Positions 3,806-63,290 of a DNA stretch of 64,000 bases are shown one piece after another. The notes under the pieces are model-generated. The model was given only the letters and a program-made list of their open reading frames with translations. It did no database searches and had not been told where the DNA came from. This stretch comes from a virus: positions 1 to 64,000 of the IMG/VR virus record IMGVR_UViG_2921643360_000001; one strand, written 5' to 3'. Positions within the stretch are counted from its first letter, which is position 1, and the number at the start of each line of letters is the position of its first letter. The position numbers and the translations under genes were made by a program.

Positions 3806-4639
3806 TTACTTGCTGAGTTGGATCATCGGCATTGCGCTGCCCATCATGTACTGAGGGTAGTGCCCGTCCCATTTGGCGATCTTCTGTTGCTCGATCAGCG
3901 CGGGGTTTGCCTCAAGCGATTTGCCCGTCAGCTCATTGGCCTTGGCGTTGTTCTCAGCAACCTTCAGCGCTGCCTCAGACTCAACGACGCGCTTTTGCGC
4001 TTCCCACTTCGTCTGGGCAATTTCGTTCTCGACGCGCAATGCGTTCTGCTGGGCGGTGATCTTCGCCTCAATGGCGTCGTTGAACTGCTTGCTAAACTGG
4101 AAGTCAACGATGTTCACCGCCGACACATTCACGCCGATATTCTTGAACCGAGTCAGCAACGCCTCGCGGATCTCCTGACTAACCTGGTCCCGCTTCTGAA
4201 TCAGGTCAGTAGCTTCGTATCGGGCCACGATAGCCTTCACGATGTCATGCACTGCCGGGTCCATGACTTGCGCCCACGGATCGCCGCCGAGATTGGCATA
4301 AACGCCGACTGCCGCAGTCGGAAGAATATTGAAGTTGACGGCGACCTTCATGTCGGCCTGTTGCAGGTCTTTTGAAGAACCCGCGATATCCGATTGCGCC
4401 TTGTACACGCCGATGTAGACCGTGTGCATCGACTGCGAAATCGGCATACGGAAGTGGATGCCGGGCTCGTACACCGTGGCGGATGGAGCGCCGAACGTGG
4501 TCATCACGCCGACGTAGCCCGCTGGCACGGATGCGAACGGCCAGAGGATGAAAAGCGCGATGAGCAATACAACTGCGCCGATAGCGCCGAGGATCAGCTT
4601 GATGCCGCCTCGCGGGACTTCTCTGGATGCAACAGCCAT
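3806..4639 (-). CDS. SPFH / band-7 (prohibitin, HflK/HflC-like) membrane protein
   Basis: N-terminal TM helix (LILGAIGAVVLLIALFILWPF) followed by a band-7 core (GYVGVMTTFG...) and a C-terminal coiled-coil/Ala-rich tail. Start chosen at Met47 of the listed ORF (ATG at 4637-4639), which has an AAGGA RBS 7 nt upstream. Confidence 0.8.
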   Translation of the reverse strand: MAVASREVPRGGIKLILGAIGAVVLLIALFILWPFASVPAGYVGVMTTFGAPSATVYEPGIHFRMPISQSMHTVYIGVYKAQSDIAGSSKDLQQADMKVAVNFNILPTAAVGVYANLGGDPWAQVMDPAVHDIVKAIVARYEATDLIQKRDQVSQEIREALLTRFKNIGVNVSAVNIVDFQFSKQFNDAIEAKITAQQNALRVENEIAQTKWEAQKRVVESEAALKVAENNAKANELTGKSLEANPALIEQQKIAKWDGHYPQYMMGSAMPMIQLSK

Positions 4640-12083: not shown

Positions 12084-12105
12084 AAAAAAGCCCGCCGAAG
12101 CGGGC
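12084..12105 (-). terminator. rho-independent terminator downstream of the repressor gene
   Basis: GCCCGC-CGAA-GCGGGC hairpin, followed on the minus strand by TTTTTTGTTT. Lies 23 nt past the cI stop. Confidence 0.7.
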
Positions 12106-23881: not shown

Positions 23882-24489
23882 ACCGTCTCCCCAGAAAAAA
23901 GAAGTGCGCAGCTTGCAAGACGGTTTTCGAACCAGCGCGCTCACTCCAGAAAGTGTGTAGCCCCAAGTGTGCCGCCGATTTTGCAGCGAAACAGAAAGCG
24001 CAGAAGTTGGCGAGGGCGAATCGGGAGGAGAGGAAGTCCCTCGCAGAGCGTAAAGCCAAGCTCAAGACTCGCCGCGAGTGGATTGCCGAGGCTCAGGCGG
24101 CATTTAACGCATACGTGCGTGAGCGAGATTACGGGAAGCCATGCATAAGTTGCGGCATCCCGCCGAGGGAAGCTTTCGGCGGCGCTGTTGATTGCGGTCA
24201 TTATCGAAGTGTTGGCAGCGCTTCTCAGCATCGCTTCAATTTAAAAAATTGCGCTGCACAATGTGTCAAATGCAATAGATATTTAGGATCTAATGCCGTC
24301 GAAATGAGGAAAGGACTTATAATTAAGATTGGTCTAGAAGAATTGGAAAATCTAGAGTCAGACCAGACCATCAAGAAGTTCAACATCGAATACCTCGCTC
24401 GCATCAAGCGAGTCTTCCTCAAGAAAGCGCGGCGAGCTAAGGCCCGGAGAAATCATGAGCATAACGAAATGGAATATGCAGCCGGGTGA
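23878..24489 (+). CDS. ninG: NinG / Rap-like protein
   Basis: Cys motifs of the lambda NinG family: CAACKT...CSPKC...CISCG...DCGHYRSVG...RFNLKNCAAQCVKCN. Confidence 0.8.
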   Translation: MNRLPRKKKCAACKTVFEPARSLQKVCSPKCAADFAAKQKAQKLARANREERKSLAERKAKLKTRREWIAEAQAAFNAYVRERDYGKPCISCGIPPREAFGGAVDCGHYRSVGSASQHRFNLKNCAAQCVKCNRYLGSNAVEMRKGLIIKIGLEELENLESDQTIKKFNIEYLARIKRVFLKKARRAKARRNHEHNEMEYAAG

Positions 24490-25264
24490 CCGGTTTTGTC
24501 GGCTGACCTTCAAGAGTGAAGGCGACGGTCGTAAAAATCGGGCGAGATATGGAATCTTCATCTGCGATTGTGGTACCGAGAAAGATGTGGCGTTCTCGCA
24601 CGTTGTTTCGGGAAAAATAAAAAGTTGTGGATGCCTCAAAGCGGAAGATGCCGGTAACAGGCTTCGCACTCATGGGATGCATGGTTCGCCAGAATATACG
24701 GTGTGGCAAGACATGTGGCAGCGCTGCACCAATCCAAAGACGGACAGATATCCGAATTACGGCGGACGGGGCATATCCGTCTGCGAGCGGTGGAAGTCGT
24801 TCGAGAACTTCTTTGCAGACATGGGTCAGCGCCCAGAAGGAACGTCGATAGAGCGAAAGGAGACGAACGGCAACTACGAGCCAAGTAACTGTCGTTGGGC
24901 CACGCCCAAGGAGCAAGGAAGGAATAGAACCAACAACCGTTTTATCGAATACAACGGGGAGAGGAAATGTGTTTCTGAATGGAGCGAGCAATTCGGCATA
25001 CCTCATTCAACGATTAACAATCGACTTCGGCTAGGGTTATCGTTAGATCAGGTTTTTGATGCAAGTGCAGATGGGTTTAAAAAGAAGTCAATCGTTGTCG
25101 ATGGTGTATCGAAGTGCACCAACGAATGGATGCGTGATGCTGGCATACCGATTTCGTCCTTCTATCACTTCCGGCGAAAGGGGCTGACTGAAGAAGAGAT
25201 CGTCAGGAAGTATCTGGCGCGCAAGCAACCCTACTCTCAAACGAATAACGAGGAAGCAGCCTAA
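24455..25264 (+). CDS. HNH-like (HNH_3-type, N-C-R-W-A-T element) homing-endonuclease-like protein, paralogue 1
   Basis: N-terminal CxCG...SCGC zinc ribbon; then HG..SPEYTVWQDMWQRC...YGGRGISVCERW...ADMGQRPEG.SIERKETNGNYEPSNCRWATPKEQGRNR. Clear paralogue of 51329..51952 and 58804..59472. Confidence 0.55.
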   Translation: MSITKWNMQPGDRFCRLTFKSEGDGRKNRARYGIFICDCGTEKDVAFSHVVSGKIKSCGCLKAEDAGNRLRTHGMHGSPEYTVWQDMWQRCTNPKTDRYPNYGGRGISVCERWKSFENFFADMGQRPEGTSIERKETNGNYEPSNCRWATPKEQGRNRTNNRFIEYNGERKCVSEWSEQFGIPHSTINNRLRLGLSLDQVFDASADGFKKKSIVVDGVSKCTNEWMRDAGIPISSFYHFRRKGLTEEEIVRKYLARKQPYSQTNNEEAA

Positions 25265-51228: not shown

Positions 51229-51328
51229 CAAGCATGTCTAATCTATTTCGGCTAAAATAGCGAGACCCGCTCGGTGCGCTAACACCTTGCGGGCCTCTAA
51301 CCACCATCTGCTTTCGAGGAGCAAAACG

Positions 51329-51952
51329 ATGGCTACCAAAGATTTTACCTCAGTTGGCGCAGTATTTTCCCGCCTTACCGTGATAGGTTCGCCAGAGAAG
51401 CGCGACCAGCGCTGGTTCGCGCCCTGCCGTTGCGAATGCGGGGCCGAGAAGTTTGTGCAATGCAAGCATCTTGTGTCCGGCGCGACGGTTTCCTGCGGTT
51501 GCGTGAAAAAGGGGCGACCCAACCTGAAGAATCGGACCCATGGCAATTGCGTTGGCGAGAGCAAGGCTTCTCCAACGTATCTAAGCTGGGTTGCTGCCAA
51601 ATCGCGTTGCGATGATGCCAAGGACCGAGACTATGCGAATTACGGCGGTCGGGGCATTCGCATGTGCGATCGCTGGCGCAATGATTTCTCGACGTTTCTC
51701 GCCGACATGGGCGAGCGGCCCGTTGGCATGACGCTAGACCGCTTCCCGGACACGGACGGCCACTACGAGCCGGGCAATTGCCGCTGGGCGACGAACCGCG
51801 AGCAACAGAATAACCGCCGCAATAATGTCCTCATTGAGCACGGCGGCCAGATGAAAACATGCACGCAGGTCGCCCGCGAATATGGAATCCGCCCCAGTGT
51901 GTTCATTGGCCGCATACGACGAGGATGGTCGGTAGAACGCGCCACATCCTAA
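51329..51952 (+). CDS. HNH-like homing-endonuclease-like protein, paralogue 2
   Basis: CRCECG...SCGC zinc ribbon, then YGGRGIRMCDRW...ADMGERPVGMTLDRFPDTDGHYEPGNCRWATNREQQNNR. AGGAGCAAAAC RBS precedes it. Confidence 0.55.
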   Translation: MATKDFTSVGAVFSRLTVIGSPEKRDQRWFAPCRCECGAEKFVQCKHLVSGATVSCGCVKKGRPNLKNRTHGNCVGESKASPTYLSWVAAKSRCDDAKDRDYANYGGRGIRMCDRWRNDFSTFLADMGERPVGMTLDRFPDTDGHYEPGNCRWATNREQQNNRRNNVLIEHGGQMKTCTQVAREYGIRPSVFIGRIRRGWSVERATS

Positions 51953-51988
51953 CCTGTCGGCAAATAGATAGCTGACGCTAAAACACCA

Positions 51989-52043
51989 AGCCCGCTAAAC
52001 GCGGGCTTTTTCATTTTCTGGCCCGCCATCGTGCGGGCTTTTT
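51989..52043 (+). terminator. tandem rho-independent terminators
   Basis: AGCCCGC-TAAAC-GCGGGCT + TTTTT (51989-52011), and GCCCGC-CATCGT-GCGGGC + TTTTT (52021-52043). Confidence 0.7.
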
Positions 52044-52060
52044 GCATTTCTGGAGCCTAA

Positions 52061-53704
52061 ATGGACCGTGTGATTACGTATGTAGGGATGAGCGTATACG
52101 AATGGCTCTTTTCTAAACAAGCGCAAAGCTCGATGGTCGGGCTCTCGAAGCTGTCGGCCGCCATGTTCGGTTCGAATACCGTGGCCAATGGTCTTTCCTG
52201 CGTACCGACCGGCCCCGCTTCGCTGCAAGTCGTCATCAACCCCGGCGAAATCTACTCGTTCGCCAACCTCGAGAACAGCGTCTGCGGAACGCTGCCGACT
52301 GATTCTCACAGCATCATGAAGCAAGGCGTCCTGCTGGATGCTTTTACGACGACTGCTGGTGCGCTTCCCGCGCCAGGCACGGCTGGACAGTCGGTGAACT
52401 ATCTCATCGAAGCCCAGTACGCAGATTCAGACGTCTCGGTCGATCCGACGACGGGCAGCGCGCCTGTCGTGCTTCAGTTCTATAACTCTTCGAATCCCGG
52501 CTCGCCTTGGAGCGGTCCTGGCGGCCTCGGCGGCACGAGCAACACGTTCCGTAAGGGCGTTGTGTCGCTCCAGATCAAGGCAGGTGCCGCGGCAACGACG
52601 GGCAGCCAGACGACGCCCTCACCTGATGCTGGCTGGACTGGGCTGTGGGTCGTGACGGTCGCCAATGGGCAGACACAGATCCTCGCGGGCAACATCACGC
52701 AATACGCAGGCGCGCCAATCCTGCCGTCGTCGATTCTTTCGTCGATCCAAAGCGGAAATATGTCGTATGCGGTCGCAACCGGGTCGGCTAACGCTCACAC
52801 GATCGCCTTGACGCCGGCTCTCACGTCGCGCGTCGACGGCATGATGATCCGCTACAAGGCTCCTGCCGCCAACACGACAGCCGTGACGCTGAACGATGGC
52901 GTCGGAACGGCCAACGTTCTCGGCGCGAACCACGCGGCACTCCAGGGCGGCGAATACATCACCAACGGTGACGCCATTGTCGTCTGGAATAGCTCGATCA
53001 GCGGCGGTTCGTACATCCTCATCGAATGCACTGGCGGCGCCCTCCAAATCCCCCCCGCCACTCAGAGCCAGCATGCTGTGCAGTTGGGGCAGGTGCAGCA
53101 GAACTATGCGTGGAATGGCGGGTTCCAGGCCGTTAGCGCAACCGGGAACTTTACAGTTCCGGCCGGCGTTTATAGATTGCGTTACCGCGTATGGGGTGGC
53201 GGTGGCGGCTCAGGCGGATGTGGGTCGACTGGCCAGACAGCAGGGGGCGCTGGCGGTGGCGGCTACTCCGAGGGAGTCGCTAGCGTAACTCCTGGTCAAA
53301 CTGTGTCATGCACTATTGGAGCAGCAGGTACCGCCGGGGGGGCAGGTGGCTCCGGTGGTACAGGCGGCACTACGTCGTTCACTGCAGGCGCTTTGACGGT
53401 TTCCGCTACCGGCGGGTCTGGAAGTTCAAACGGCATAGGGTCTGGCGGGAATGGAGCAGCCGGTGGCACCGGATCTGGTGGGCAAAACAACCTGACTGGT
53501 GCCGGCGGCTGCTCGGGTTCGGGCTCGACGGGCGGCCCTGGGGGCATGGGTGGTTCGGCCCCCCAAGGCGGTGGCGGTGGCGGTGGCGCAACTGGGACCG
53601 CCCAGTCCGGGCAGACGCCTGGCGGCGGCGCAGGAGGGCCTGGTGCGGCTGGAGCCAACCCGGGCGCCATTGGCGGAGCTGGTCGCATTGTTTTTGAATG
53701 GTGA
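52061..53704 (+). CDS. tail fibre protein with Gly-rich C-terminal domain
   Basis: 547 aa. The C-terminal 180 aa are about 60 % Gly (GGGGSGGCGSTGQTAGGAGGGG...). Confidence 0.7.
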   Translation: MDRVITYVGMSVYEWLFSKQAQSSMVGLSKLSAAMFGSNTVANGLSCVPTGPASLQVVINPGEIYSFANLENSVCGTLPTDSHSIMKQGVLLDAFTTTAGALPAPGTAGQSVNYLIEAQYADSDVSVDPTTGSAPVVLQFYNSSNPGSPWSGPGGLGGTSNTFRKGVVSLQIKAGAAATTGSQTTPSPDAGWTGLWVVTVANGQTQILAGNITQYAGAPILPSSILSSIQSGNMSYAVATGSANAHTIALTPALTSRVDGMMIRYKAPAANTTAVTLNDGVGTANVLGANHAALQGGEYITNGDAIVVWNSSISGGSYILIECTGGALQIPPATQSQHAVQLGQVQQNYAWNGGFQAVSATGNFTVPAGVYRLRYRVWGGGGGSGGCGSTGQTAGGAGGGGYSEGVASVTPGQTVSCTIGAAGTAGGAGGSGGTGGTTSFTAGALTVSATGGSGSSNGIGSGGNGAAGGTGSGGQNNLTGAGGCSGSGSTGGPGGMGGSAPQGGGGGGGATGTAQSGQTPGGGAGGPGAAGANPGAIGGAGRIVFEW

Positions 53705-53928: not shown

Positions 53929-55242
53929 ATGCTTATTTCGAAAATCGGCGGGGCGGTAAATAAGGTAGCGATGTCGGTCAAGCATCGCGTCGTCGGGCGG
54001 GCGATCTCTACGCTAGAGAAACCTCATCAGGCAGTTCCCGATGTCGCGATTCCCGATGTTCCCGAGACGGATGAGTCTGTTCTCGCTCGATCCGAGTCTA
54101 TTATTTCCCGGGCAATTTCTGCTGGCCGATCTGGCAAGCTGACCGTTGTTCCTGAGATGATCTCCGTCGCGGCCACGGAAAACTGCAATCTTAAGTGTGT
54201 TATGTGCCCAGGTCATGCGGGTATGAGCGGTCCGAAACTCTCAGTCAATGAGGCCGAAATGCTATTCGCCTCGCTCGCTGTTGAAGGCCCGCATTTTGGG
54301 TCGCCGAAGATCCTAGACATGACATCTGGTGAGCCCACGCTCAACCCCGACCTAGGGCCAATTTACGGCCGATTCAAAGAACTTTTCCCCGATTCGAAGA
54401 TTTCGATGATAAGCAACGGGACGATCCCCGTTCGCGGTCGAACCCGTGAAGCATTCGAACATGCTGACCGCATCGGTCTTTCGATGGACGGCGCGACGCA
54501 GGAGACGTATGAGCGGATCCGTCAAGGGTCGATATGGAAGAACGTCATTCGCAATGTGATGGACGTTGCTGAAATCAAGAAGTTGGGTGAGAACTGCGAG
54601 ACGTTGCAGATCATGATGGTTGTTATGGACCAGAATATCCATGAACTACCTGAAATGATCCGCCTCGCACATTCCCTTGGAATTCCGCAAGTGTTCGCGC
54701 AGGTTTCTGAGATTCGTACTACCCCCTTCAATATCGCAGGGCAGAACGTTTCGCTTACTCTCTCAAAGGAAAAACTCGCCCCTATAGTACACGAGGCGAA
54801 GCAGGAGGCTCAGCGACTCGGCTTGGATTTGACTCTTACGGCGCATCTGGAAAATTCACTCGTTCCGGATGAGCCAAAGCAACCAGCGACTGCTCAGATG
54901 ACACATGACGAGCGCGCGTTGAGTGTCGCGATTCGAACGTGTAATGTGCCGTGGATGCATGCACCGCGCATTTCGCAAAATCACGATGGGATCTACCCCA
55001 CAACGGTTTGCTGCCATATGCCGAATGTCCATGGCGCTGGCAATTTGGCACGCCGGGAGGAGTTCCGCGGGAAGTCGATCAACGAAATCTTCAACTCGCC
55101 ATACTATTGGGAAATTCGGGCTGGGTTGATGGATGGATCGCTTGCCAATGATGCATGCAAGGGTTGCCAGTATCACCAGATGACGCAGTGGACGGCCACC
55201 CAATTGCGCGAATTGGAAGAGGCCGTCGATGCATCAGTTTGA
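53929..55242 (+). CDS. radical SAM enzyme with C-terminal SPASM/twitch-like Cys cluster
   Basis: CNLKCVMC (the CxxxCxxC motif), SGEPTLNP glycine-rich SAM motif, and C-terminal CNVPW...CCHMP...CKGCQY. The first 60 nt are about 52 % GC, against higher-GC flanks. Confidence 0.85.
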   Translation: MLISKIGGAVNKVAMSVKHRVVGRAISTLEKPHQAVPDVAIPDVPETDESVLARSESIISRAISAGRSGKLTVVPEMISVAATENCNLKCVMCPGHAGMSGPKLSVNEAEMLFASLAVEGPHFGSPKILDMTSGEPTLNPDLGPIYGRFKELFPDSKISMISNGTIPVRGRTREAFEHADRIGLSMDGATQETYERIRQGSIWKNVIRNVMDVAEIKKLGENCETLQIMMVVMDQNIHELPEMIRLAHSLGIPQVFAQVSEIRTTPFNIAGQNVSLTLSKEKLAPIVHEAKQEAQRLGLDLTLTAHLENSLVPDEPKQPATAQMTHDERALSVAIRTCNVPWMHAPRISQNHDGIYPTTVCCHMPNVHGAGNLARREEFRGKSINEIFNSPYYWEIRAGLMDGSLANDACKGCQYHQMTQWTATQLRELEEAVDASV

Positions 55243-55605
55243 TTGATTCAGGGACGGGGATAACGACGGCGCCTCGCCACATTCGTTTTCGGCTAGTCCC
55301 TGCTCGTCTACAGGTCGGTCAGGAAAGCTCATAGGCGCTCGCATTCCGATCAGTGCCGTGAGTTTTCCGAAGAAGGACCGCTTGTGCGTCTCCAGTCCGA
55401 ACTCTCGTGCGCTTCGCTGGAAGTTGTCGACCTCCCCGGAGCAGAAGCAGGCGACATACCGGTAGGTCTCTCGTCGTCGATTCAGAAGGGCGAAATACGC
55501 ATAGACAGGCTGATCGAATTTCTTGATCTCTCCCACCTGTAAGCGCTCAACAAATGCTTTGTCCTGCTCCGGCATGTGCCGCGTAGTCAAAAGTATCGTC
55601 TGCAC
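55234..55605 (-). CDS. hypothetical protein
   Basis: 123 aa, convergent with the rSAM gene; AT-rich promoter-like region upstream. Confidence 0.4.
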   Translation of the reverse strand: MQTILLTTRHMPEQDKAFVERLQVGEIKKFDQPVYAYFALLNRRRETYRYVACFCSGEVDNFQRSAREFGLETHKRSFFGKLTALIGMRAPMSFPDRPVDEQGLAENECGEAPSLSPSLNQSN

Positions 55606-55706
55606 TTCGATCCTCCGTCTCTGGGTTATTTAGGATCGCGCTGAATGTTCAGGGGATTGCGTTGTTTTTCAATTCGTTACCCCTGTAACGACCGCCGATA
55701 ATACAC

Positions 55707-56504
55707 CTAAAATTTTATTTTCAGCTCCAGCGCATCGGCATCATTCCACAGTGGCGGAATTTCGCGCTTGTTGCTGTTGATGCTCATGAAGTAATGCCTG
55801 TAGCTCAAGGTGAGGCGACCGTTTCCTACGGACAGCCCAGCAACGGGCGCGACGGACCAGTAGGCATCGGAAACGCTGATGTCCTGTGCCGTCTGCGTTG
55901 GCCACGCCTTCCACCCGGCGACGTGCTCGGACCACGAGTCACGATGCACATAGGCGCCGACTTCTGCGCCGACGCGGACGCCGTAGACCCAGTAGTACGG
56001 CTCAAGCGTCAGCGCGACACCTTGTGATCGTCCTTCGCCCGTGAAATACGCCTGCGGTACGTCAACCTTACGCGTGTAAGAGTGCGACGATGGGTCGTAA
56101 TTCGCGTCATTCGGCGTGCATGAGCAGTCGGCTGCAGCGCGACCAAGATTGACGTATTCGGCGTGCCAGTCGACGCCCCATTTGCCGCGAGTGATGAGCG
56201 GACCAGTGAAGCCAGCAGAGAAAGCCGGCGGCTTGCTCGTCAGCTTTGAGCCGCCCGGAATGCCCTCCTGGTACCAGCGACCATCGGTCGTGGTGTACTT
56301 GGCCGCGCCAATGCCCAATTCGACCTGAACGTAATCGTTGATGTAATCAGCATGCGCCGACGCAGCGGCACAGCCCAAACTCATCGCAACAGCCGCCGCA
56401 CGCCACCGCGACCCAACGCGGCGATTCGTGCGTGAAGCCGTAACCTGTTGGCGCGGAACTCGGCGACCGCGTGAAGCCTGAACCACCCGATTTTGCGTGT
56501 GCAT
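55707..56504 (-). CDS. outer-membrane beta-barrel protein (Lom/Ail-like or PagL-like moron)
   Basis: Signal peptide (RWRAAAVAMSLGCAAASAHA|DY); alternating amphipathic beta-strands; C-terminus ...LELKIKF ends in Phe. The true start is uncertain. Confidence 0.6.
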   Translation of the reverse strand: MHTQNRVVQASRGRRVPRQQVTASRTNRRVGSRWRAAAVAMSLGCAAASAHADYINDYVQVELGIGAAKYTTTDGRWYQEGIPGGSKLTSKPPAFSAGFTGPLITRGKWGVDWHAEYVNLGRAAADCSCTPNDANYDPSSHSYTRKVDVPQAYFTGEGRSQGVALTLEPYYWVYGVRVGAEVGAYVHRDSWSEHVAGWKAWPTQTAQDISVSDAYWSVAPVAGLSVGNGRLTLSYRHYFMSINSNKREIPPLWNDADALELKIKF

Positions 56505-56506
56505 TT

Positions 56507-57187
56507 TTATTCTCCGAGCGCAACTGTCAAATTAGCTGCGTGATTTGCTGTCCAGACGGTTGCGAAAGCTTGCAGCGATGCTTTGCGCTCGTCATAGTCC
56601 TTGCCCAAGCCGATCATTACGGCGTTGCGCTCTTCCAGTCTTGCCAGAAGATCGAGCGCAGTCGTTGACAGGCTGTCGCGCTCAAGAGATTGAAACTTGC
56701 CTGATGCGGCCCAGTTGACCAGCCGCGCCTCATTGGAAAAATGATGCGGAGCGCATGTCTTGCCGATGGCCTCGCGGCTCAATTGCACAATCTGCGACAT
56801 GACCTTGTATGACGCTGCGGCTTCGTGGCGAAGACGTTTCTGGTCAAAGTGCGGATGCTGGCGTGTGATGAGCGCACGAATTTGCCGATCGCACCAGATA
56901 GCGAAGCGCACGTCCAGCCATCGGGCGAATCCAACCGCAAGATCGGGATGAAGCCAAGTTCCGCCGCTCTTGCCGCGCAAGGTGCGAATCCAATTACCAG
57001 ATTCTCCGGTATTTAAGGATTCATCCAAGGCAGCGATGTATTCCTGTGTGGCAGGAAGGGCGAGCCAGTCATTCGGACGCTTGCCGAATTGCGAGGCGAT
57101 GGCTGTCGCATTGAACCAACCTTCGTCAGTAAATGAGACGGCCACGCCTTGGTAGTCTGCGACGATGATTTGCTGTTTGGGGGCCAT
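56507..57187 (-). CDS. KilA-N domain protein
   Basis: N-terminal KilA-N/APSES-like segment (VSFTDEGWFNATAIASQFGKRPNDWL...GGTWLHPDLAVGFARWLD). Confidence 0.65.
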   Translation of the reverse strand: MAPKQQIIVADYQGVAVSFTDEGWFNATAIASQFGKRPNDWLALPATQEYIAALDESLNTGESGNWIRTLRGKSGGTWLHPDLAVGFARWLDVRFAIWCDRQIRALITRQHPHFDQKRLRHEAAASYKVMSQIVQLSREAIGKTCAPHHFSNEARLVNWAASGKFQSLERDSLSTTALDLLARLEERNAVMIGLGKDYDERKASLQAFATVWTANHAANLTVALGE

Positions 57188-57212
57188 TACCGCGCTCCCA
57201 TGCTGAATGATG

Positions 57213-57509
57213 CTACTGCGTGTCTTCTCCAGCGGCCTCCGACATGTCCATCGTGGCGCCGACTTTGCGCATTTCGTCGATCACGGCTTCGATATCCCGC
57301 TGCTTGAGCACGAGTTTCGCCATAGCGAAAAACAGCATTTGCGCGCTGATCTTCCTCGGCTCCTTCCCGCCCGTATATTTCCTGAATTGCTTGTCGTCCG
57401 ATACACCGAACAACTCGGCCATCTGGGAGCCGGTATATCCAAGCCGCGCCTTGAGTCGCGCTAGGTCTTCTGGGGTCGGTGCTTCGTAGCGCATTGAGGA
57501 ATCGTCCAA
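57213..57509 (-). CDS. XRE-type HTH regulator
   Basis: DLARLKARLGYTGSQMAELFGVSDDKQFRKYTGG. Confidence 0.55.
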   Translation of the reverse strand: MDDSSMRYEAPTPEDLARLKARLGYTGSQMAELFGVSDDKQFRKYTGGKEPRKISAQMLFFAMAKLVLKQRDIEAVIDEMRKVGATMDMSEAAGEDTQ

Positions 57510-57691
57510 GGCTGCGCGAAAAATCGCGAAATGTTCTTCTCATGATTCTTCCTTTCGGAGTTGTCGGGTTGCCGGATGGCCGCCCTGTGATTGGAAGTAT
57601 CAGCCCCGAAGGGGGCATTTGTCAACAACTAAATTCGACCAACCAACCTGCCCGCCACGAGCGGGCTTTCTGCTTTAACGGGGCTTACTGA

Positions 57692-57976
57692 ATGGACAAC
57701 ACGGTCCTCTACATTGGCGGCGCTGTAGCTGGCGCTATCGGCACGGTTGCCTGGTGGGCTGTTCGTGCGATGCACGCGCGCATCAACGAGAACGCTAAAG
57801 ACCTCTCCGACTACAAGCTCTACGCGGAAAAGCGTTTCGTGACATCCGACGAACTGACGAAGGCCATCGGAAATCTCGAAGGATCAATCGAGCGCCTGAT
57901 TGAATCAGTCGATACCAACGCCAAGGAAATGCGCGAGTGGTTCCGGCTGCTCCAGCAGACGAAGGCAGATAAGTAA
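57692..57976 (+). CDS. holin-like protein (single N-terminal TM + coiled coil)
   Basis: LYIGGAVAGAIGTVAWWAV transmembrane segment. Sits immediately upstream of the endolysin. Confidence 0.45.
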   Translation: MDNTVLYIGGAVAGAIGTVAWWAVRAMHARINENAKDLSDYKLYAEKRFVTSDELTKAIGNLEGSIERLIESVDTNAKEMREWFRLLQQTKADK

Positions 57977-58014: not shown

Positions 58015-58629
58015 ATGCAACTCACAGCACAGATTGTCGCGTCAGGGTGTGGCTCAGCGCTTCTTCGGGCGGCGCAGTGGGTCGCCCCGCTCCAATCCGC
58101 CTGCGACCGCTACCACATCGACACGCCTCTGCGCGTCGCGGCCTTCCTGTCGCAGATCGGCGTCGAGTCTGCCCGCCTCACCGCCCTCGTCGAAAACCTG
58201 AATTACTCGGCAGAGGGTTTGCTCGCAACCTTCCCGAAGTACTTCAACGCAGTGCAGGCGGCGCAGTACGAGCGACAGCCGCAGCGCATCGCGAATCACG
58301 TCTACGCGAATCGGTACGGCAATGGTGACGAGGCGAGCGGAGATGGATTTCGATTTCGCGGCAGAGCGTTGCTCCAGATAACCTTTAGAGACAACTATGC
58401 CTCATGCGGTAAGGCGATTGCGCTGCCTCTCGACTCACATCCTGAGTTGCTTGAGCAACCATGCAATGCGGCGCTCGCGGCTGGCTGGTATTGGGACTCG
58501 CGCAACCTTAACCCGCTGGCCGATGCCGGTCGATTCGAGGGCATCACGCGCGCTATCAACGGCGGGCTCGCAGCGTATTCCGAACGCCTCGCTCTCTATA
58601 GCGCTGCAAAGAAGTCACTCGGTATCTGA
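58015..58629 (+). CDS. endolysin, glycoside hydrolase family 19 (chitinase-like)
   Basis: GH19 catalytic signature GNGDEASGDGFRFRGRALLQITFRDNY. Confidence 0.85.
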   Translation: MQLTAQIVASGCGSALLRAAQWVAPLQSACDRYHIDTPLRVAAFLSQIGVESARLTALVENLNYSAEGLLATFPKYFNAVQAAQYERQPQRIANHVYANRYGNGDEASGDGFRFRGRALLQITFRDNYASCGKAIALPLDSHPELLEQPCNAALAAGWYWDSRNLNPLADAGRFEGITRAINGGLAAYSERLALYSAAKKSLGI

Positions 58630-58803
58630 TTATCCCCTCGCATCCCTCGCTAAGGGATAGCGGCCAAACGGGTAATTTCACGATAACTGCGACACGCGTA
58701 GCTCGATCGTAGTCCGAAATTTTGAGGTAAAATAGCGAGAGCGGAAAGGTACTTGCGATACCGATCCGCTCTCTAACCAAAGCCTGCTTACAAGGAGCAA
58801 ACT

Positions 58804-59472
58804 ATGGCTATCCGCAAGTATATCGCATCTGGCGAAATCCTCCATGGTTGGGTCTACGTCCGAGAGGGCGTGGATCGCGGCAGGACTCGGCACATCTTCG
58901 CAATGTGCCCCTCATGCAAAAACGAAGTCGAAGTAAATGCGACTGAGGTGCGGACTGGAAAAAAGAAAATGTGCCGTCCATGTGCCGACAAATTCAACGG
59001 GGCGAGATGCCTGGTTCATGCAGAAAAGTGGGCGACGCACAGGATGTCAGGTTCGACAACTTACGAATCATGGCGGTCTATGATGAAGCGTTGCTACTTA
59101 GAAAGTGCAACGTTCTATCAATACTACGGCGGAAAAGGGGTCAAAGTTTGCGACCGTTGGCGGGATTCGTTCGCCAATTTCTTTGCTGATATGGGAGAGC
59201 GCCCTGAAGGCATGACCTTGGACAGATACCCCGACAAGAACGGTGACTACGCGCCGGGTAACTGCAGATGGGCAACGCCAACGGAACAGATTCGCAACAG
59301 AAATACCACGGTGTATATTGAGTTCCGGGGGTTGCGCAAAACGATGAAGGAATGGGCGGATGAAATTGGTGTCGCCTACAAGACATTACGCGCAAGGATA
59401 GTTGACCAAGGATGGCCAATAGACCGCGCACTTACTACGCCGCTGCGGATCCACAGAAAGCACGTCCCATAA
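58804..59472 (+). CDS. HNH-like homing-endonuclease-like protein, paralogue 3
   Basis: CPSCK...CRPC ribbon; YGGKGVKVCDRW...ADMGERPEGMTLDRYPDKNGDYAPGNCRWATPTEQIRNR. Same 5' and 3' flanks as paralogue 2. Confidence 0.55.
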   Translation: MAIRKYIASGEILHGWVYVREGVDRGRTRHIFAMCPSCKNEVEVNATEVRTGKKKMCRPCADKFNGARCLVHAEKWATHRMSGSTTYESWRSMMKRCYLESATFYQYYGGKGVKVCDRWRDSFANFFADMGERPEGMTLDRYPDKNGDYAPGNCRWATPTEQIRNRNTTVYIEFRGLRKTMKEWADEIGVAYKTLRARIVDQGWPIDRALTTPLRIHRKHVP

Positions 59473-59497
59473 ATCAAAGAAGTCGCTGCGACTGACA

Positions 59498-59522
59498 AGC
59501 CCGCCATTGTGCGGGCTTTTTG
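59498..59522 (+). terminator. rho-independent terminator
   Basis: AGCCCGC-CATTGT-GCGGGCT followed by TTTTTGTTTT. Confidence 0.7.
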
Positions 59523-59546
59523 TTTTCCATCCATTGAAGATTACGC

Positions 59547-59993
59547 ATGCCAACACCTCTACTCCGTGACGCGGGGTCAAGCGGCAGTGTGACCGGCGCG
59601 AATGCTATTGCCAACAACGCCTATTCCAATAGCGCGGACAAGTTGCGGATTCAGTTAAGCGCGATCGGAACAAACTATCTGCTGGCTGATTTCCGGCTTA
59701 CTTCTGCCACATTCGCCAGCGCTCCGACGACTGGCGTTATCCAGCTTGCAAAAGTCCCGCGCGACTTCAGCGGAAACGCAGGGCCGACGCCCTCTGCTTC
59801 GATGCTGGCGACGCAGATCTATACGATGGGACCCGCCCCCTCAACCGGGAACGCCTCAACAAGCTGGGTCATGTCCGTCGATTCGGTCCCGCTCGATGCT
59901 GATGCGGACTACTGGGTCTTCAACAACGCAACCGGCGTTTCTCTCAACTCGGGATGGGTGCTTACCTATGTCCCGTGGTCACCTGGAACGTAA
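59547..59993 (+). CDS. hypothetical fibre-module protein
   Basis: 148 aa, Ser/Ala/Thr-rich. Confidence 0.4.
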   Translation: MPTPLLRDAGSSGSVTGANAIANNAYSNSADKLRIQLSAIGTNYLLADFRLTSATFASAPTTGVIQLAKVPRDFSGNAGPTPSASMLATQIYTMGPAPSTGNASTSWVMSVDSVPLDADADYWVFNNATGVSLNSGWVLTYVPWSPGT

Positions 59994-59999
59994 TCACAC

Positions 60000-60215
60000 A
60001 TGGCACTCATCAACGTTGCGCTTCCCGGCGCATCTGAAATCACGCAGATGGACGACGCTGACCTTCACAAGCTCGAAGGCAGTTACGAGAATGAAAACGA
60101 GATCGTTGGCTGGGTCCAATACCACCTCAAGACAACCGGCGACCTCGTGCATCGCAGCGTGAATATGCACCTGAAGACGGTTCCGGCAGAACTCGCGCAA
60201 GCACTCATTGGATAA
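60000..60215 (+). CDS. hypothetical small protein
   Basis: 71 aa. Confidence 0.35.
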   Translation: MALINVALPGASEITQMDDADLHKLEGSYENENEIVGWVQYHLKTTGDLVHRSVNMHLKTVPAELAQALIG

Positions 60216-60227
60216 CGGAGATTACAA

Positions 60228-60677
60228 ATGGCGAACACGCAAGGGCTCGCAAATTCTTTCAAAAATGAGGTTCTTCTCGGCCTCCACCAGTTCGGTTCGG
60301 CGACGCTCACATCGCGCGGCAGTCTGACGACTCCGACGACAGACACGTTCAAGGCGGCTCTGTATCTGGCGTCCGGCTCACTCGGCGCAGGGACGACCGC
60401 CTATAGCGCGACCAGCGAAGTATCAGGCACGAACTACTCGGCGGGCGGCGTCACGGTGACGAATGCCAACGCACCGAGCGGCGGCCAGTGGACGCCCTCC
60501 GCCTCCATCGTCTACACGAACGTTACGCTCTCGACATCTTTCGATACGGTCCTGATCTACAACTCGACGCAGGGCAATCGCGCGGTCGGAACTTTTGTAT
60601 TCGGAGCGCAGACGATCACCGCCGGCACCCTCACGCTAACCATGCCCGGTTCGGGCGGACTCATCGCGATTAACTAA
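60228..60677 (+). CDS. hypothetical fibre-module protein
   Basis: 149 aa, beta-rich S/T/G composition. Confidence 0.4.
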   Translation: MANTQGLANSFKNEVLLGLHQFGSATLTSRGSLTTPTTDTFKAALYLASGSLGAGTTAYSATSEVSGTNYSAGGVTVTNANAPSGGQWTPSASIVYTNVTLSTSFDTVLIYNSTQGNRAVGTFVFGAQTITAGTLTLTMPGSGGLIAIN

Positions 60678-60682
60678 CTGCC

Positions 60683-62419
60683 ATGGGCGCGCCAGACCTC
60701 TCAAACTGGATCTGGCCGGACGCGGATCTACAGCGCCAGCCTCAGGGCGTGGTCACGGTCAACCCTCAGGTTTTCCCCAGCGCGGTACGCTGCTTTGTCG
60801 GTGGCCGCGATGTGTTGACGAACATCAACCTGGCGCTCCCGCTCATCCAGACGCCAGCCGGAACGGGATATACAAACACCAGCAACTCGGCCGCCGCCAA
60901 GCAACTGTCGAGCACTCTAGCCACTTCGTCCGGCGCGGGCGCAGGTGATTTCACGATCATCTGTGTACACAATCTGGCGGCAAGCGGGTCTCAGAATTCG
61001 GTCGCCTGGGCGATTGACGCTAACAAGGCCGCCCCTGGCTTCTATGTCCAGATGAACGCCGACACGTCGGGTGCCTTGGCATCTGGCGATATGACGTTTG
61101 GGGACTTTAATAACGCGGGGATCGCGCTGACCGGGGCGGTTGACGGCAAAAGTCACGCAGTCATTTTCACGCGGCGCGGCACGACGCTCTATGCCTTCAT
61201 GGATGGGGCGCTGAAGTCTACGCTCGCCTCCTACACTTATGCCCTGCCCGCGTCGGGCAATGCGGAGTGGGTGGGAGGGTCAGGGTGGGCTAACACCGGC
61301 GTCGTCGGGGGTGGCGTCCCGCTTATCGCGGTGTCCAACCGGGGGTTGACGATTGCCGAGGGCGTGGCGCTCTCTGCTAACCCCTGGCAGATTTTCAAGC
61401 CGGCGACGATGGCGCTGTATATGCCAGCGGCTGCGGGCGGCGTGACGGTTGGGCTGTCTCAGGTAGCGGGTGCGGGTAGTGTCGGTGCTGTCGGCATCGC
61501 AACGGGGCTCTCGGCAACGGGCGTATCTGCGACTGGTGCGACGGGTTCTGCCGGATATGGCGAAGGTTATGCGATCACTGGTGCGGCGGCCACTGGCAGC
61601 ACGGGTATTGCTACGCCCGCCTCGTCTCCAGTTCTGGCAGGTGCCAGTGCGACAGGCTCGATGGGCACCGCTGCGCCTTCGATCACCGCAGCGCTGACCG
61701 GCGTATCGGGTGCATCGTCTGTCGGTAGCGTAACCCCCGGCACTTCGGCGGCCCTGACGCAAGTCGCCGCAACGGGATCGACGGGCTCGGTAAGTGAGGG
61801 TATTTCACTGGCCCTGTCTGGCGTCGCGGGAACGGGATATGTCGGCACCGTCTCATCTGGCGGCAACATCACGCAGGCGCTGTCCGGGGCCCCTGCTACT
61901 GGCGCTGTCGGCTCCGTATCCCCTTCCCTGTCGCTGGTTAGTTCTGGCGTCTCGGCAACGGGCAGCACGGGCTCTCTCGCTCCGACTCGCGCGCTATCCG
62001 GCGTATCTGGAGCCAGCACGACTGGCGCCGTCACGCAGTCGATATCGCCTACCCTCGTCGGCTCAAGCGCAGCCGGGTCAACAGGCGCTATCTCTGCGGG
62101 CGCGGACAAGAATGCAGCTCTGACTGGTGCTGCGGCAACGTCTTCCGTTGGCAGTGTTGGCACGAACGTCTCGATCGGTCTGGCTGGCATTTCCGCGACG
62201 GCATCGACCGGCGTTCTCGCGTCGAGCCTGACTTATGGACTGGTTGGAAATGCGTCGGCAACAAGCGTTGGATCGATTCTGGCCGTCACTCCAAAATCCA
62301 TCGCGGCCCCGCCTGTCACGTTCCCGATCTACCGAGAGCGGCGCGTGTTCAGCATTCCATCTGAAAGTCGCATATCGCCCGTTCCTGCCGAGAGGCGAAT
62401 CATCAAAGTCGCAGCCTAG
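60683..62419 (+). CDS. tandem-repeat fibre-like protein with N-terminal lectin/LamG-like region
   Basis: 578 aa. From about aa 240 there are roughly 17 degenerate ~20-aa repeats of the form L-x-G-x-S-A-T-G-S-x-G-S... A terminator follows. Confidence 0.5.
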   Translation: MGAPDLSNWIWPDADLQRQPQGVVTVNPQVFPSAVRCFVGGRDVLTNINLALPLIQTPAGTGYTNTSNSAAAKQLSSTLATSSGAGAGDFTIICVHNLAASGSQNSVAWAIDANKAAPGFYVQMNADTSGALASGDMTFGDFNNAGIALTGAVDGKSHAVIFTRRGTTLYAFMDGALKSTLASYTYALPASGNAEWVGGSGWANTGVVGGGVPLIAVSNRGLTIAEGVALSANPWQIFKPATMALYMPAAAGGVTVGLSQVAGAGSVGAVGIATGLSATGVSATGATGSAGYGEGYAITGAAATGSTGIATPASSPVLAGASATGSMGTAAPSITAALTGVSGASSVGSVTPGTSAALTQVAATGSTGSVSEGISLALSGVAGTGYVGTVSSGGNITQALSGAPATGAVGSVSPSLSLVSSGVSATGSTGSLAPTRALSGVSGASTTGAVTQSISPTLVGSSAAGSTGAISAGADKNAALTGAAATSSVGSVGTNVSIGLAGISATASTGVLASSLTYGLVGNASATSVGSILAVTPKSIAAPPVTFPIYRERRVFSIPSESRISPVPAERRIIKVAA

Positions 62420-62783: not shown

Positions 62784-63290
62784 ATGTCCGTTCAAGATAC
62801 CCACGAGCTGAAAGACACACTCGTAGCAGATTACTTCGTGCCGGGTCATGAGGCGCGCACCACCACCGCCCTTTTCGAGCGCACGCGAAAGATCCTCATC
62901 GAACGCGAAGGTGGCCGCTGCTTCGTCACCAACATGACCGCTGAAGAACTCGGCGCGCCGTTGCAGGCTCATCACCATCCTGTCGAGCGCTGCTTTGCGA
63001 CCGCATGGGACTGGCCGCGCTTTGCCGATGACTGCAAGGCTGGAAAGTGGGGGCCGCACGCGCAGGAATTCGATTGGGATTCGTTCCTTTCCGCAAAGCC
63101 GTTTGACCCTTACCGCTTTGTCGATGACATGACCGTCAACGGCATGTTGCTCGGCGCCGGGCCGCACATCGGGAAAGACCAAGGTTTGCACAGGTTGCCG
63201 TTTCCTGTGTGGTTGTTCACCAAATACGCCGTTGAGGGCTATCGCTTCAGCCCAACCGAAACCATCCATCACGACCCGGAACATCTATGA
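62784..63290 (+). CDS. hypothetical protein with possible HNH-like His/Cys motif
   Basis: GGRCFVTNMTAEELGAPLQAHHHPVERC. The assignment is weak. Confidence 0.35.
   Translation: MSVQDTHELKDTLVADYFVPGHEARTTTALFERTRKILIEREGGRCFVTNMTAEELGAPLQAHHHPVERCFATAWDWPRFADDCKAGKWGPHAQEFDWDSFLSAKPFDPYRFVDDMTVNGMLLGAGPHIGKDQGLHRLPFPVWLFTKYAVEGYRFSPTETIHHDPEHL

Follow-up and report, generated by a model that had tools for sequence, protein, structure and literature searches.

We analysed a gene cassette in a 64,000-nucleotide stretch of viral DNA (positions 1 to 64,000 of the IMG/VR record IMGVR_UViG_2921643360_000001; the whole stretch is called 'the window' below). The cassette sits at the junction of a conserved endolysin gene and a fibre-like module, and its open reading frame (ORF), par3, is probably an intact, horizontally acquired, free-standing homing-type endonuclease gene that carries an antisense module homologous to symE/symR of Escherichia coli. 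This interpretation is based on sequence, predicted fold, covariation, strand asymmetry, promoter conservation, symR homology and presence/absence polymorphism among relatives, and from these we predict production of the RNA, repression by it, DNA cutting by the protein, and homing. The new element would be the leader of the cassette, which reads as a SymR-like antisense RNA gene common to several nuclease families, while the protein itself appears to be of a known, poorly curated kind. In the literature that we searched, we found no paper that connects HNH or homing endonucleases with SymR or with antisense control of type I. The features of the cassette and its upstream neighbour are as follows.

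58015-58629, plus strand: endolysin of the GH19 type (phrog_181, E 4e-79), the upstream neighbour of par3
58728-58809, minus strand: predicted SymR-like cis-antisense RNA of ~82 nt with two hairpins, its 5′ AGCCAU opposite the par3 start codon and its 3′ tail being CUCGCUAUUUUA
58737-58773, no strand assigned: hairpin 1, a two-tier stem clamped by GAG...CTC, terminator-like in the antisense RNA
58781-58809, no strand assigned: hairpin 2, which holds the Shine-Dalgarno (SD) sequence AAGGAG (58792-58797) and the par3 start AUGGCU
58804-59472, plus strand: par3 ORF of 222 aa, with an N-terminal zinc ribbon (CxxC...CxxC), a PacI-like His-Me core and a C-terminal module resembling a helix-turn-helix (HTH)
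58817-58822, minus strand: predicted antisense -10 element TATACT in par3 codons 5-7, 7 nt upstream of AGCCAU
59215-59298, plus strand: putative beta-beta-alpha-metal core, residues 138-165, TLD140-R141...Y149-x-P-x-N153-C-R-W-A...Q162...N165
59497-59528, plus strand: intrinsic terminator GCCCGCCATTGTGCGGGC with T-run, detected at 59497-59518 plus the T-run

Protein family, fold and putative chemistry

The AAGGAG of par3 lies 7 nt 5′ of its ATG. The C-terminal 130 residues of the protein are identical to an NCBI 'hypothetical protein' (P0001) from a 72-kb contig of Paraburkholderia steynii. The NCBI annotation, which starts at Met93, is thus truncated at the N terminus, and we prefer the full 222-aa ORF because of its homologues and the zinc ribbon confidently modelled by AlphaFold. 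No Pfam or NCBIfam model matches the par3 protein even at E≤1 (PF01844, PF13392 and PF14279 included), and these curated domain databases have no model for the par3 family. PHROG families labelled 'HNH endonuclease' do match, with E values of 1e-50 to 1e-66. The family is very large, with 195,745 cluster representatives (50% identity, E≤1e-3), of which 85,412 remain at E≤1e-30. Its members occur in 368 deposited phages, whose hosts include Gram-positive as well as Gram-negative bacteria, and depositors labelled them 'hypothetical protein', 'HNH endonuclease' or 'homing endonuclease'.

Residues invariant in 45 homologues include R141, Y149, N153, C154, W156, Q162 and N165, with D140 nearly so, and the family also conserves H79, C97, C116 and C154. 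Across the 45, no His is invariant in the core; the position of the catalytic His, at the end of strand 1, is taken by the invariant Arg R141. An earlier, sequence-only account of this DNA (the preliminary description) had called the gene HNH-like, which holds at the superfamily level but not for the Pfam HNH models or for the catalytic His. The AlphaFold model of par3 (pLDDT 89.8) places an N-terminal beta zinc ribbon before a core unit, beta(138-141)-loop-beta(154-157)-alpha(159-165), that corresponds to the beta-beta-alpha-metal fold, and ends in a beta hairpin and three helices. Profile alignment by hhalign to PacI alone and to a nine-member PacI family profile gave probabilities of 5-6% and pairwise E values of 0.006-0.007 with an identical register, in which LDR..Y.P.N.R.A...Q stands opposite the PacI-invariant VDR..Y.P.N.R.A...N. 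The aligned pairs (par3/PacI) are D140/D92, Y149/Y100, N153/N104 and Q162/N113, the last being Gln rather than Asn. HMMER profile searches of PDB sequences gave no match at E≤10, and a Foldseek search of the PDB returned nothing informative. PacI binds its single metal through one Asp and one Asn, and a loop Tyr stands in for the His general base (PMC4081073, PMC5714182). As judged from alignment register and model, we take par3 to be a PacI-like His-Me finger in which the defining His is absent.

The family-wide absence of the catalytic His and the lack of a Pfam HNH match would also fit a core that is a catalytically dead His-Me finger kept for DNA binding, like SMAD MH1; par3 would then be a DNA-binding regulator or a homing endonuclease in decay. 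His-Me groups without activity are on record (PMC5714182), and a few family members have an extra GIY-YIG, canonical HNH or AP2 domain. Many members (P0130-P0279) also carry the whole module in 2-5 tandem copies per polypeptide, up to 895 aa, an unusual arrangement for a nuclease domain that is relevant to this DNA-binding alternative. We nevertheless consider a dead core unlikely: the invariant residues (D, Y, N and Q/N) reproduce the catalytic constellation of PacI, which is active without the His; the distribution of the gene is patchy, site-variable and discordant with its flanks, as for homing genes; and the tight antisense control predicted below suggests a toxic product.

A predicted antisense RNA gene in the leader

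The leader of par3 had been described as the string TAAAATAGCGAGA, hairpin, CTCTAACCA, ribosome binding site and ATGGCTA. All of these elements are present; what was missed is the opposite strand, on which the string appears to be best read, as a SymR-like antisense RNA gene. In this reading TAAAATAGCGAG would be conserved because it is the complement of the RNA 3′ tail CUCGCUAUUUUA, which follows a terminator-like hairpin, and ATGGCT because it is the complement of the RNA 5′ end. The predicted par3 antisense RNA folds at -38.3 kcal/mol (z -6.5) and exceeds the sense strand in stability by 7.6 kcal/mol. This asymmetry recurs in all 16 loci compared (16/16; mean -9.6 kcal/mol, Wilcoxon p 3e-5), with 2-7 G-U pairs on the antisense strand versus 0-2 on the sense strand, each antisense G-U being an A-C mismatch on the sense strand. 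The predicted antisense RNAs share the two-hairpin shape of SymR (z -6.5 and -6.2, versus -5.4 for SymR). Hairpin 1 is further marked by covariation. When 12 unique leaders are aligned with MAFFT without structural information, pairing is seen in 88.7% of cells versus 70.3% in shuffles (0/500), and both sides change in 9 of 13 pairs (slid controls 33-49%). Hairpin 2 forms in 15 of 15 leaders, with modest individual z-scores; in E. coli, SymR covers the corresponding region.

A putative promoter for this RNA is also shared. The antisense strand has TAnnnT 6-8 nt upstream of AGCCAT in 14 of 17 loci, E. coli included (background ~3%), and two more loci have it at 10 nt. The gap is exactly 7 nt in par3 (TATACT), par2 (TAAAAT), a paralogue in the window described below, and E. 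coli (TAGAAT). Across loci this element lies in codons 3-6 of the ORF, and it is kept whichever protein the ORF encodes. The E. coli symR promoter is likewise embedded in symE, and its -10 element is required (PMC1891008).

Homology to SymR was found in both search directions. The Rfam model RF01809 (SymR) aligns in its full length to the antisense strand of the leader of par2 (44.5 bits, E 8e-8) and, in a 29-kb search, to the antisense strands of loci L251 (45.4 bits, E 1e-5) and L250 (41 bits, E 1e-4); here and below, L numbers denote our contigs and loci. Conversely, a covariance model built only from HNH leaders (R1) was searched against ~2.3 Mb of phage and prophage DNA. Its significant matches all lie 5′ of HNH-type genes, three of them outside the seed (L184, L167 and L168), and within the window it matches only par2 and par3, the latter with 66.5 bits on the sense strand. 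In the 8-kb mcrBC-symE-hsd region of E. coli K-12, the sole significant R1 match is the symE leader (E 1e-3; next match 7 bits). A second, full-length antisense covariance model (R2), built from 15 HNH cassettes and used in an unfiltered 72-kb search, matches 3836-3917 (plus strand, E 3e-5), compared with 3836-3912 for the annotated E. coli symR, with an identical 5′ end. The par3 antisense RNA scores 85.3 bits (E 6e-20) against R2. By these reciprocal covariance-model matches, the leader is homologous to the E. coli symE 5′ untranslated region (5′UTR)/symR.

The leader also occurs as a module beyond this phage. The arrangement TAAAAT(A)GCGAG, hairpin, CTCTAACC, SD mini-hairpin and ATGGCT precedes family members in L082, L005, L176 and L254. 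A scan of IMG/VR for the two flanking motifs, blind to the protein, returned 9 loci, against ~3 chance matches expected (an estimate from 20 specified bases, not from shuffles), and the hairpin is present in 9/9 with stems that differ with compensation. A readable HNH-type ORF comes next in 8 of the 9; L248 has none. This ORF is a par3-family member in L247, L250, L251/L253 and L252, an HNH_3+AP2 protein in L245/L246 and a different HNH_3 protein in L249. On this sequence evidence, one leader module is placed before three different HNH-type gene families. A different structured RNA can occupy the same position: in Pseudomonas phage phiAH14a, an int-alpA RNA (RF02996, 37 bits, above gathering; L259 1391-1455) lies just 5′ of a family member.

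Other identities were considered for the leader. An antitermination site of the boxB-boxA (rrn/nut-like) type, an RNase III site and hairpin ends as in IS200/605 elements were dropped, given the antisense evidence and the occurrence of the leader before three nuclease families. Sub-threshold matches to the two-hairpin countertranscripts RF00043 and RF00238 in Rfam were judged to be architectural resemblance only.

The homology to SymR raises the question of what the pair is for. SymE/SymR is a type I toxin-antitoxin (TA) pair (PMC1891008), and the cassette could chiefly be such a module for addiction or defence, in which the nuclease is the toxin, the antisense RNA is the antitoxin, and the pair stabilises a prophage or aborts superinfection. 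As this explanation would have it, the host contig belongs to a bacterial assembly (Paraburkholderia steynii) and the Paraburkholderia genome L082 has a related copy. SymR, on the other hand, is unusually stable and acts as a titrator rather than a labile antitoxin, the cassettes lie between phage structural or lysis genes, and the nuclease gene is more conserved than its flanks, which is the signature of homing; a primary TA role is accordingly improbable in our judgement. A broader hypothesis, which we put forward tentatively, is that the SymR-type antisense gene is a portable 'safety catch' that moves with toxic nuclease genes, such cassettes in phages and prophages being type I TA-like units.

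Rather less plausible is a leader that works on the sense strand only, without any antisense RNA. Here TAAAAT would be the -10 element (extended in some copies) of the nuclease's own promoter, hairpin 1 a 5′-terminal stabiliser of the mRNA and hairpin 2 a throttle on translation, as in T-even homing endonuclease genes. T4-type homing endonuclease genes do have their own promoters and hairpins that sequester the ribosome binding site (PMC2988022), and TGn stands immediately 5′ of TAAAAT in 7 of 15 leaders versus ~1/16 expected. There is, however, no -35 element, no conserved sequence 5′ of TAAAAT and no promoter called there by a sigma-70 scan, and a plain sigma-70 promoter was rejected on these grounds; TAAAAT may have a dual role, as sense -10 and antisense terminator tail. 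The sense-only account also has to contend with the fold asymmetry and its A-C mismatches, with an antisense -10 element conserved inside unrelated coding sequences, and with symR homology in both directions.

Paralogues and probable independent acquisition

A tblastn search with the par3 protein finds exactly three paralogues in the window, par1, par2 and par3 itself.

24455-25264, plus strand: par1, 269 aa, without the antisense module and the shared terminator
51253-52044, plus strand: par2 cassette, with ORF 51329-51952 and tandem terminators at 51988-52008 and 52020-52039
51253-51334, minus strand: predicted par2 SymR-like antisense RNA (Rfam symR 44.5 bits, R2 83.8 bits)
51342-51347, minus strand: putative par2 antisense -10 element TAAAAT, a sequence match

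The par3 protein shares 39% identity with par1 (E 3e-39) and 36% with par2 (E 3e-37; overall 36-37%). TAAAATAGCGAGA occurs in the window at 51253 and 58728 only, CTCTAACCA at 51295 and 58771 only, and matches to the SD region CTGCTTnCnAGGAGCAAAC and to the terminator GCCCGCCAT(T/C)GTGCGGGCTTTTTG are confined to the par2 and par3 cassettes (shuffle expectation ~0-0.2 for each). The hairpin between TAAAATAGCGAGA and CTCTAACCA folds in both cassettes (z = -3.5 each). None of the leader, SD hairpin or terminator elements was found in the flanks of par1. Nucleotide identity between par2 and par3 is 0.65-0.78 in the leader and 96% in the terminator (23/24, versus 52021-52044), on par with the catalytic core, while it falls to the background level (0.35-0.40) in the N-terminal half of the gene. 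The preliminary description had proposed a third paralogous HNH-like gene in a self-contained cassette, built like the one at 51229-52060, and the ORF, the paralogues and the flanking motifs were all found, with the leader, SD hairpin and terminator unique to par2 and par3 in the window. The high protein similarity that it claimed between the two is seen in the core and does not extend over the whole length.

The endolysin gene is the probable conserved landmark of the par3 insertion site. Used as bait, it retrieved the viral contigs L002 (85%) and L008 (83%) and the Paraburkholderia genome L082 (84%). Searches of deposited phages, with the region as DNA and with the fibre-like protein and terminase as proteins, found none that is syntenic. 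In L002 and L008, a gene at the g60228 position begins 110-150 nt 3′ of the endolysin, and the order continues with a fibre-like gene whose C terminus resembles that of g60683, followed by homologues of g62455, g62784, g63287 and g63581; a par3 homologue is absent from both contigs. DNA homology between the window and L002 stops ~40 nt beyond the endolysin stop codon, near 58670, just 5′ of the leader. With g59547 as bait, viral, genome and metagenome collections gave no exact empty site for par3 and mosaic loci only; g59547 homologues in these collections always lie directly before a gene resembling the g60683 N terminus and never after an endolysin. As a further observation, the fibre-like module at 59547-62419 is itself a mosaic with a swapped N-terminal part; L002 and L008 share with it only the g60683 C terminus (...YGERRVF.V.SE.R....PAERRI.KVAA).

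The par2 site is more sharply resolved. It is empty in L082, where the homologues of g50512 and g52061 are adjacent, and filled in L254, with an orthologue 68% identical versus 42-55% for the flanking baseplate and fibre genes. DNA homology between the window and L254 begins exactly at 51253, the first base of the leader. The comparison of gene with flanks covers par2/L254 only, a close par3 orthologue not being available. The third-position GC content (GC3) of par3 is 0.59 versus 0.65-0.75 in its neighbours, and par1 also falls below its own neighbours. In a neighbour-joining tree of 54 family members, par1, par2 and par3 are scattered; the par2-par3 identity of 37% ranks 45-50th of 53, and par2 has its 68% relative in another genome. 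Since the paralogues are not nearest relatives and the sites are polymorphic for presence and absence, independent acquisition of the three copies is well supported by the sequences compared, in agreement with the repeated integration, rather than vertical duplication, that had been suggested at the outset. An ancient duplication within this phage lineage, with the flanks shared by par2 and par3 (leader 65-78% and terminator 96% identical, versus 37% for the proteins) as its remnants, is very improbable, because every copy has closer relatives in other genomes, unrelated contigs combine the leader with other HNH families, relatives differ in the occupancy of the sites, and similar terminators are generic to the phage.

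The same relatives speak against a further suggestion of the preliminary description, that the insert split a contiguous lysis operon and that relatives lacking it would have spanin genes immediately 3′ of the endolysin. The next feature after the endolysin in L002 and L008 is the fibre-like module, and the lipoprotein/transmembrane (TM) candidates lie ~3.4 kb downstream, as in the window. These two contigs thus separate the endolysin from spanin-like candidates without any HNH-like insert, the outcome that the preliminary description itself had named as refuting the suggestion.

Terminators

Terminators of the form GCCCGC-loop-GCGGGC-T-run occur at seven places in the window, those resembling that of par3 being at 12090, 29035, 40868, 51990 and 57650, and one follows the endolysin of L082. 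Because such terminators recur in the phage and in a relative, the par3 terminator may be the resident endolysin terminator rather than cargo of the cassette. Leader-bearing cassettes elsewhere end in a GC hairpin with a conserved TTTTTTATTGCC tail, which follows variable GC stems 3′ of the nuclease ORFs in the unrelated contigs L247, L249, L250, L251, L184 and L005, with the variant TTTTTTATTGG in L082. The shared TTTTTTATTGCC tail suggests that in these cassettes the terminator travels with the gene. At the par2 site, tandem intrinsic terminators (51988-52039) follow the gene; two identical ones are present at L254 5660-5730 and one at the empty site of L082. The tandem arrangement may be a footprint of the insertion mechanism.

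Neighbouring genes

A fourth HNH-type gene, at 62784-63290 (plus strand), is unrelated to the three paralogues (phrog_8048, no Pfam match) and has no SymR-like leader. Its homologue is in the same position in L002/L008 and directly after the endolysin in L003-L005, and the gene looks resident rather than recently inserted. The small membrane protein encoded before the endolysin differs among relatives: that of the window (57692-57976) has an N-terminal TM segment and a coiled coil, and those of L002 (5702-6004) and L008 (5682-5987) have a C-terminal TM segment, with the endolysin 83-85% identical in all. Between the tail and lysis modules lies a block of opposite-strand genes (55234-57618, minus strand) that encodes a 265-aa protein with a signal-peptide-like N terminus (74% identical in L002), a KilA-N protein (PF04383) and a 98-aa protein with an L008 homologue; this block has the look of a moron or regulatory island. 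The glycine-rich tail-fibre-like gene at 52061-53704 is followed immediately by a gene for a 437-aa Radical_SAM protein (53929-55242, plus strand; PF04055, E 1.5e-14), an unusual neighbour for a fibre gene.

Proposed mechanism and its implications

Taken as a homing-type endonuclease under antisense control, par3 can be given a mechanism by analogy with PacI and SymR. In the protein, Asp140 together with Gln162/Asn165 would hold one metal ion, and the invariant loop residue Tyr149 would replace the absent His general base. On the opposite strand, transcription from a promoter within codons 3-6 would yield a ~82-nt RNA that is fully complementary to the SD sequence, the start codon and the entire 5′ leader and that would end at hairpin 1 followed by GCUAUUUUA. 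Following SymR, this RNA would block translation of the nuclease and destabilise its mRNA, and so probably keeps the nuclease off. The nuclease would then be made only once sense transcription exceeds the antisense RNA, for example by read-through from the lysis or late operon in lytic growth.

Several observations weigh against this interpretation. No leader reaches the 61-bit gathering threshold of the Rfam symR model, a gathering-level scan of the whole window is empty, and the par3 leader itself has no match to the model at E≤10. The Rfam model misses it because its apical loop differs, and we assign the par3 leader as SymR-like because of its R1 and R2 scores and the shared promoter and geometry. 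The module is present in ~5% of the sampled viral loci of the family and in none of six cultured phages with family members (0/6), BcepMigl included. At the insertion site, g59547 and g60000 are missing from L002/L008 along with par3 and the right flank is not alignable, which makes the par3 empty site inexact. Finally, the additional GIY-YIG and canonical HNH domains of some members would fit a non-catalytic, DNA-binding core.

Should the safety-catch hypothesis be true, the antisense RNA could be a switch that licenses homing in lytic growth only, the cassettes could act as addiction or exclusion modules, or both, and mobile endonuclease cassettes would have a common ancestry with the regulatory half of symE/symR in E. 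coli. The present result ties together free-standing homing endonucleases and type I TA pairs, so far separate topics. In phage genomes, one SymR-homologous RNA module accompanies HNH-type nucleases of at least three unrelated families, which points to a general means of silencing selfish nucleases until the right moment, and SymR, until now an enterobacterial curiosity, gains a much wider evolutionary context. The analysis also flags a family of nearly 200,000 cluster representatives with putative His-less, PacI-like chemistry. For homing endonuclease genes of the T-even phages, control is by promoters, hairpins, terminators and RNase E (PMC2988022), to which antisense control would add a layer.

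Comparison with known systems

The PeSL cassettes of T4-like phages are likewise short conserved modules with variable, non-essential and unrelated ORFs (PMC2839356, PMC4122927). They consist of a sense-strand early promoter and a terminator and mediate recombination, and they have neither an antisense RNA nor sequence similarity to the par3 module. PacI (PDB 3LDY/3M7K; His-Me finger 'group 20') is the closest parallel considered here for the putative core, with no significant sequence-profile score to par3. Its zinc ligands Cys88/109/112 are not conserved in the par3 family, which has its own H79/C97/C116/C154 set; its Asn113 is Gln in par3; and par3, which is phage-borne and free-standing unlike this restriction enzyme, adds the C-terminal HTH-like module. 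'PacI-like' HNH endonucleases have been noted in Skunavirus (PMC12724721).

Phage HNH homing endonuclease genes such as T4 mobE and I-HmuI-like genes are likewise intergenic, non-essential and patchy among relatives, and they also carry their own regulatory signals, RNA structures that occlude the ribosome binding site, and terminators (PMC2988022, PMC12724721). Control of the T-even genes relies on cis hairpins and on which promoter is used; in the literature that we searched, we found no description of a cis-encoded antisense RNA gene for any of these homing endonuclease genes.

For the leader, the comparison is with SymE-SymR (RF01809). SymR represses the translation of symE and the stability of its mRNA, is very stable and is present at ~10-fold over its target (PMC1891008). 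The regulated proteins differ, with a predicted His-Me finger at par3 versus the AbrB/MazE-like SymE in E. coli, and unlike symE, par3 is set in a phage, has no LexA box seen 5′ of it and belongs with Rfam scores below the gathering cut-off. Both modules appear to specify an antisense RNA of ~77-82 nt from a promoter inside the 5′ end of the ORF, with a -10 element 7 nt from an AG(U/C)CAU start opposite codon 2, and with two hairpins. Both RNAs would span the SD sequence, the AUG and the whole 5′UTR, and they have the sequence blocks UGGUUAGAG/UGAUUAGCG and GUGUUGgcGCAC in common.

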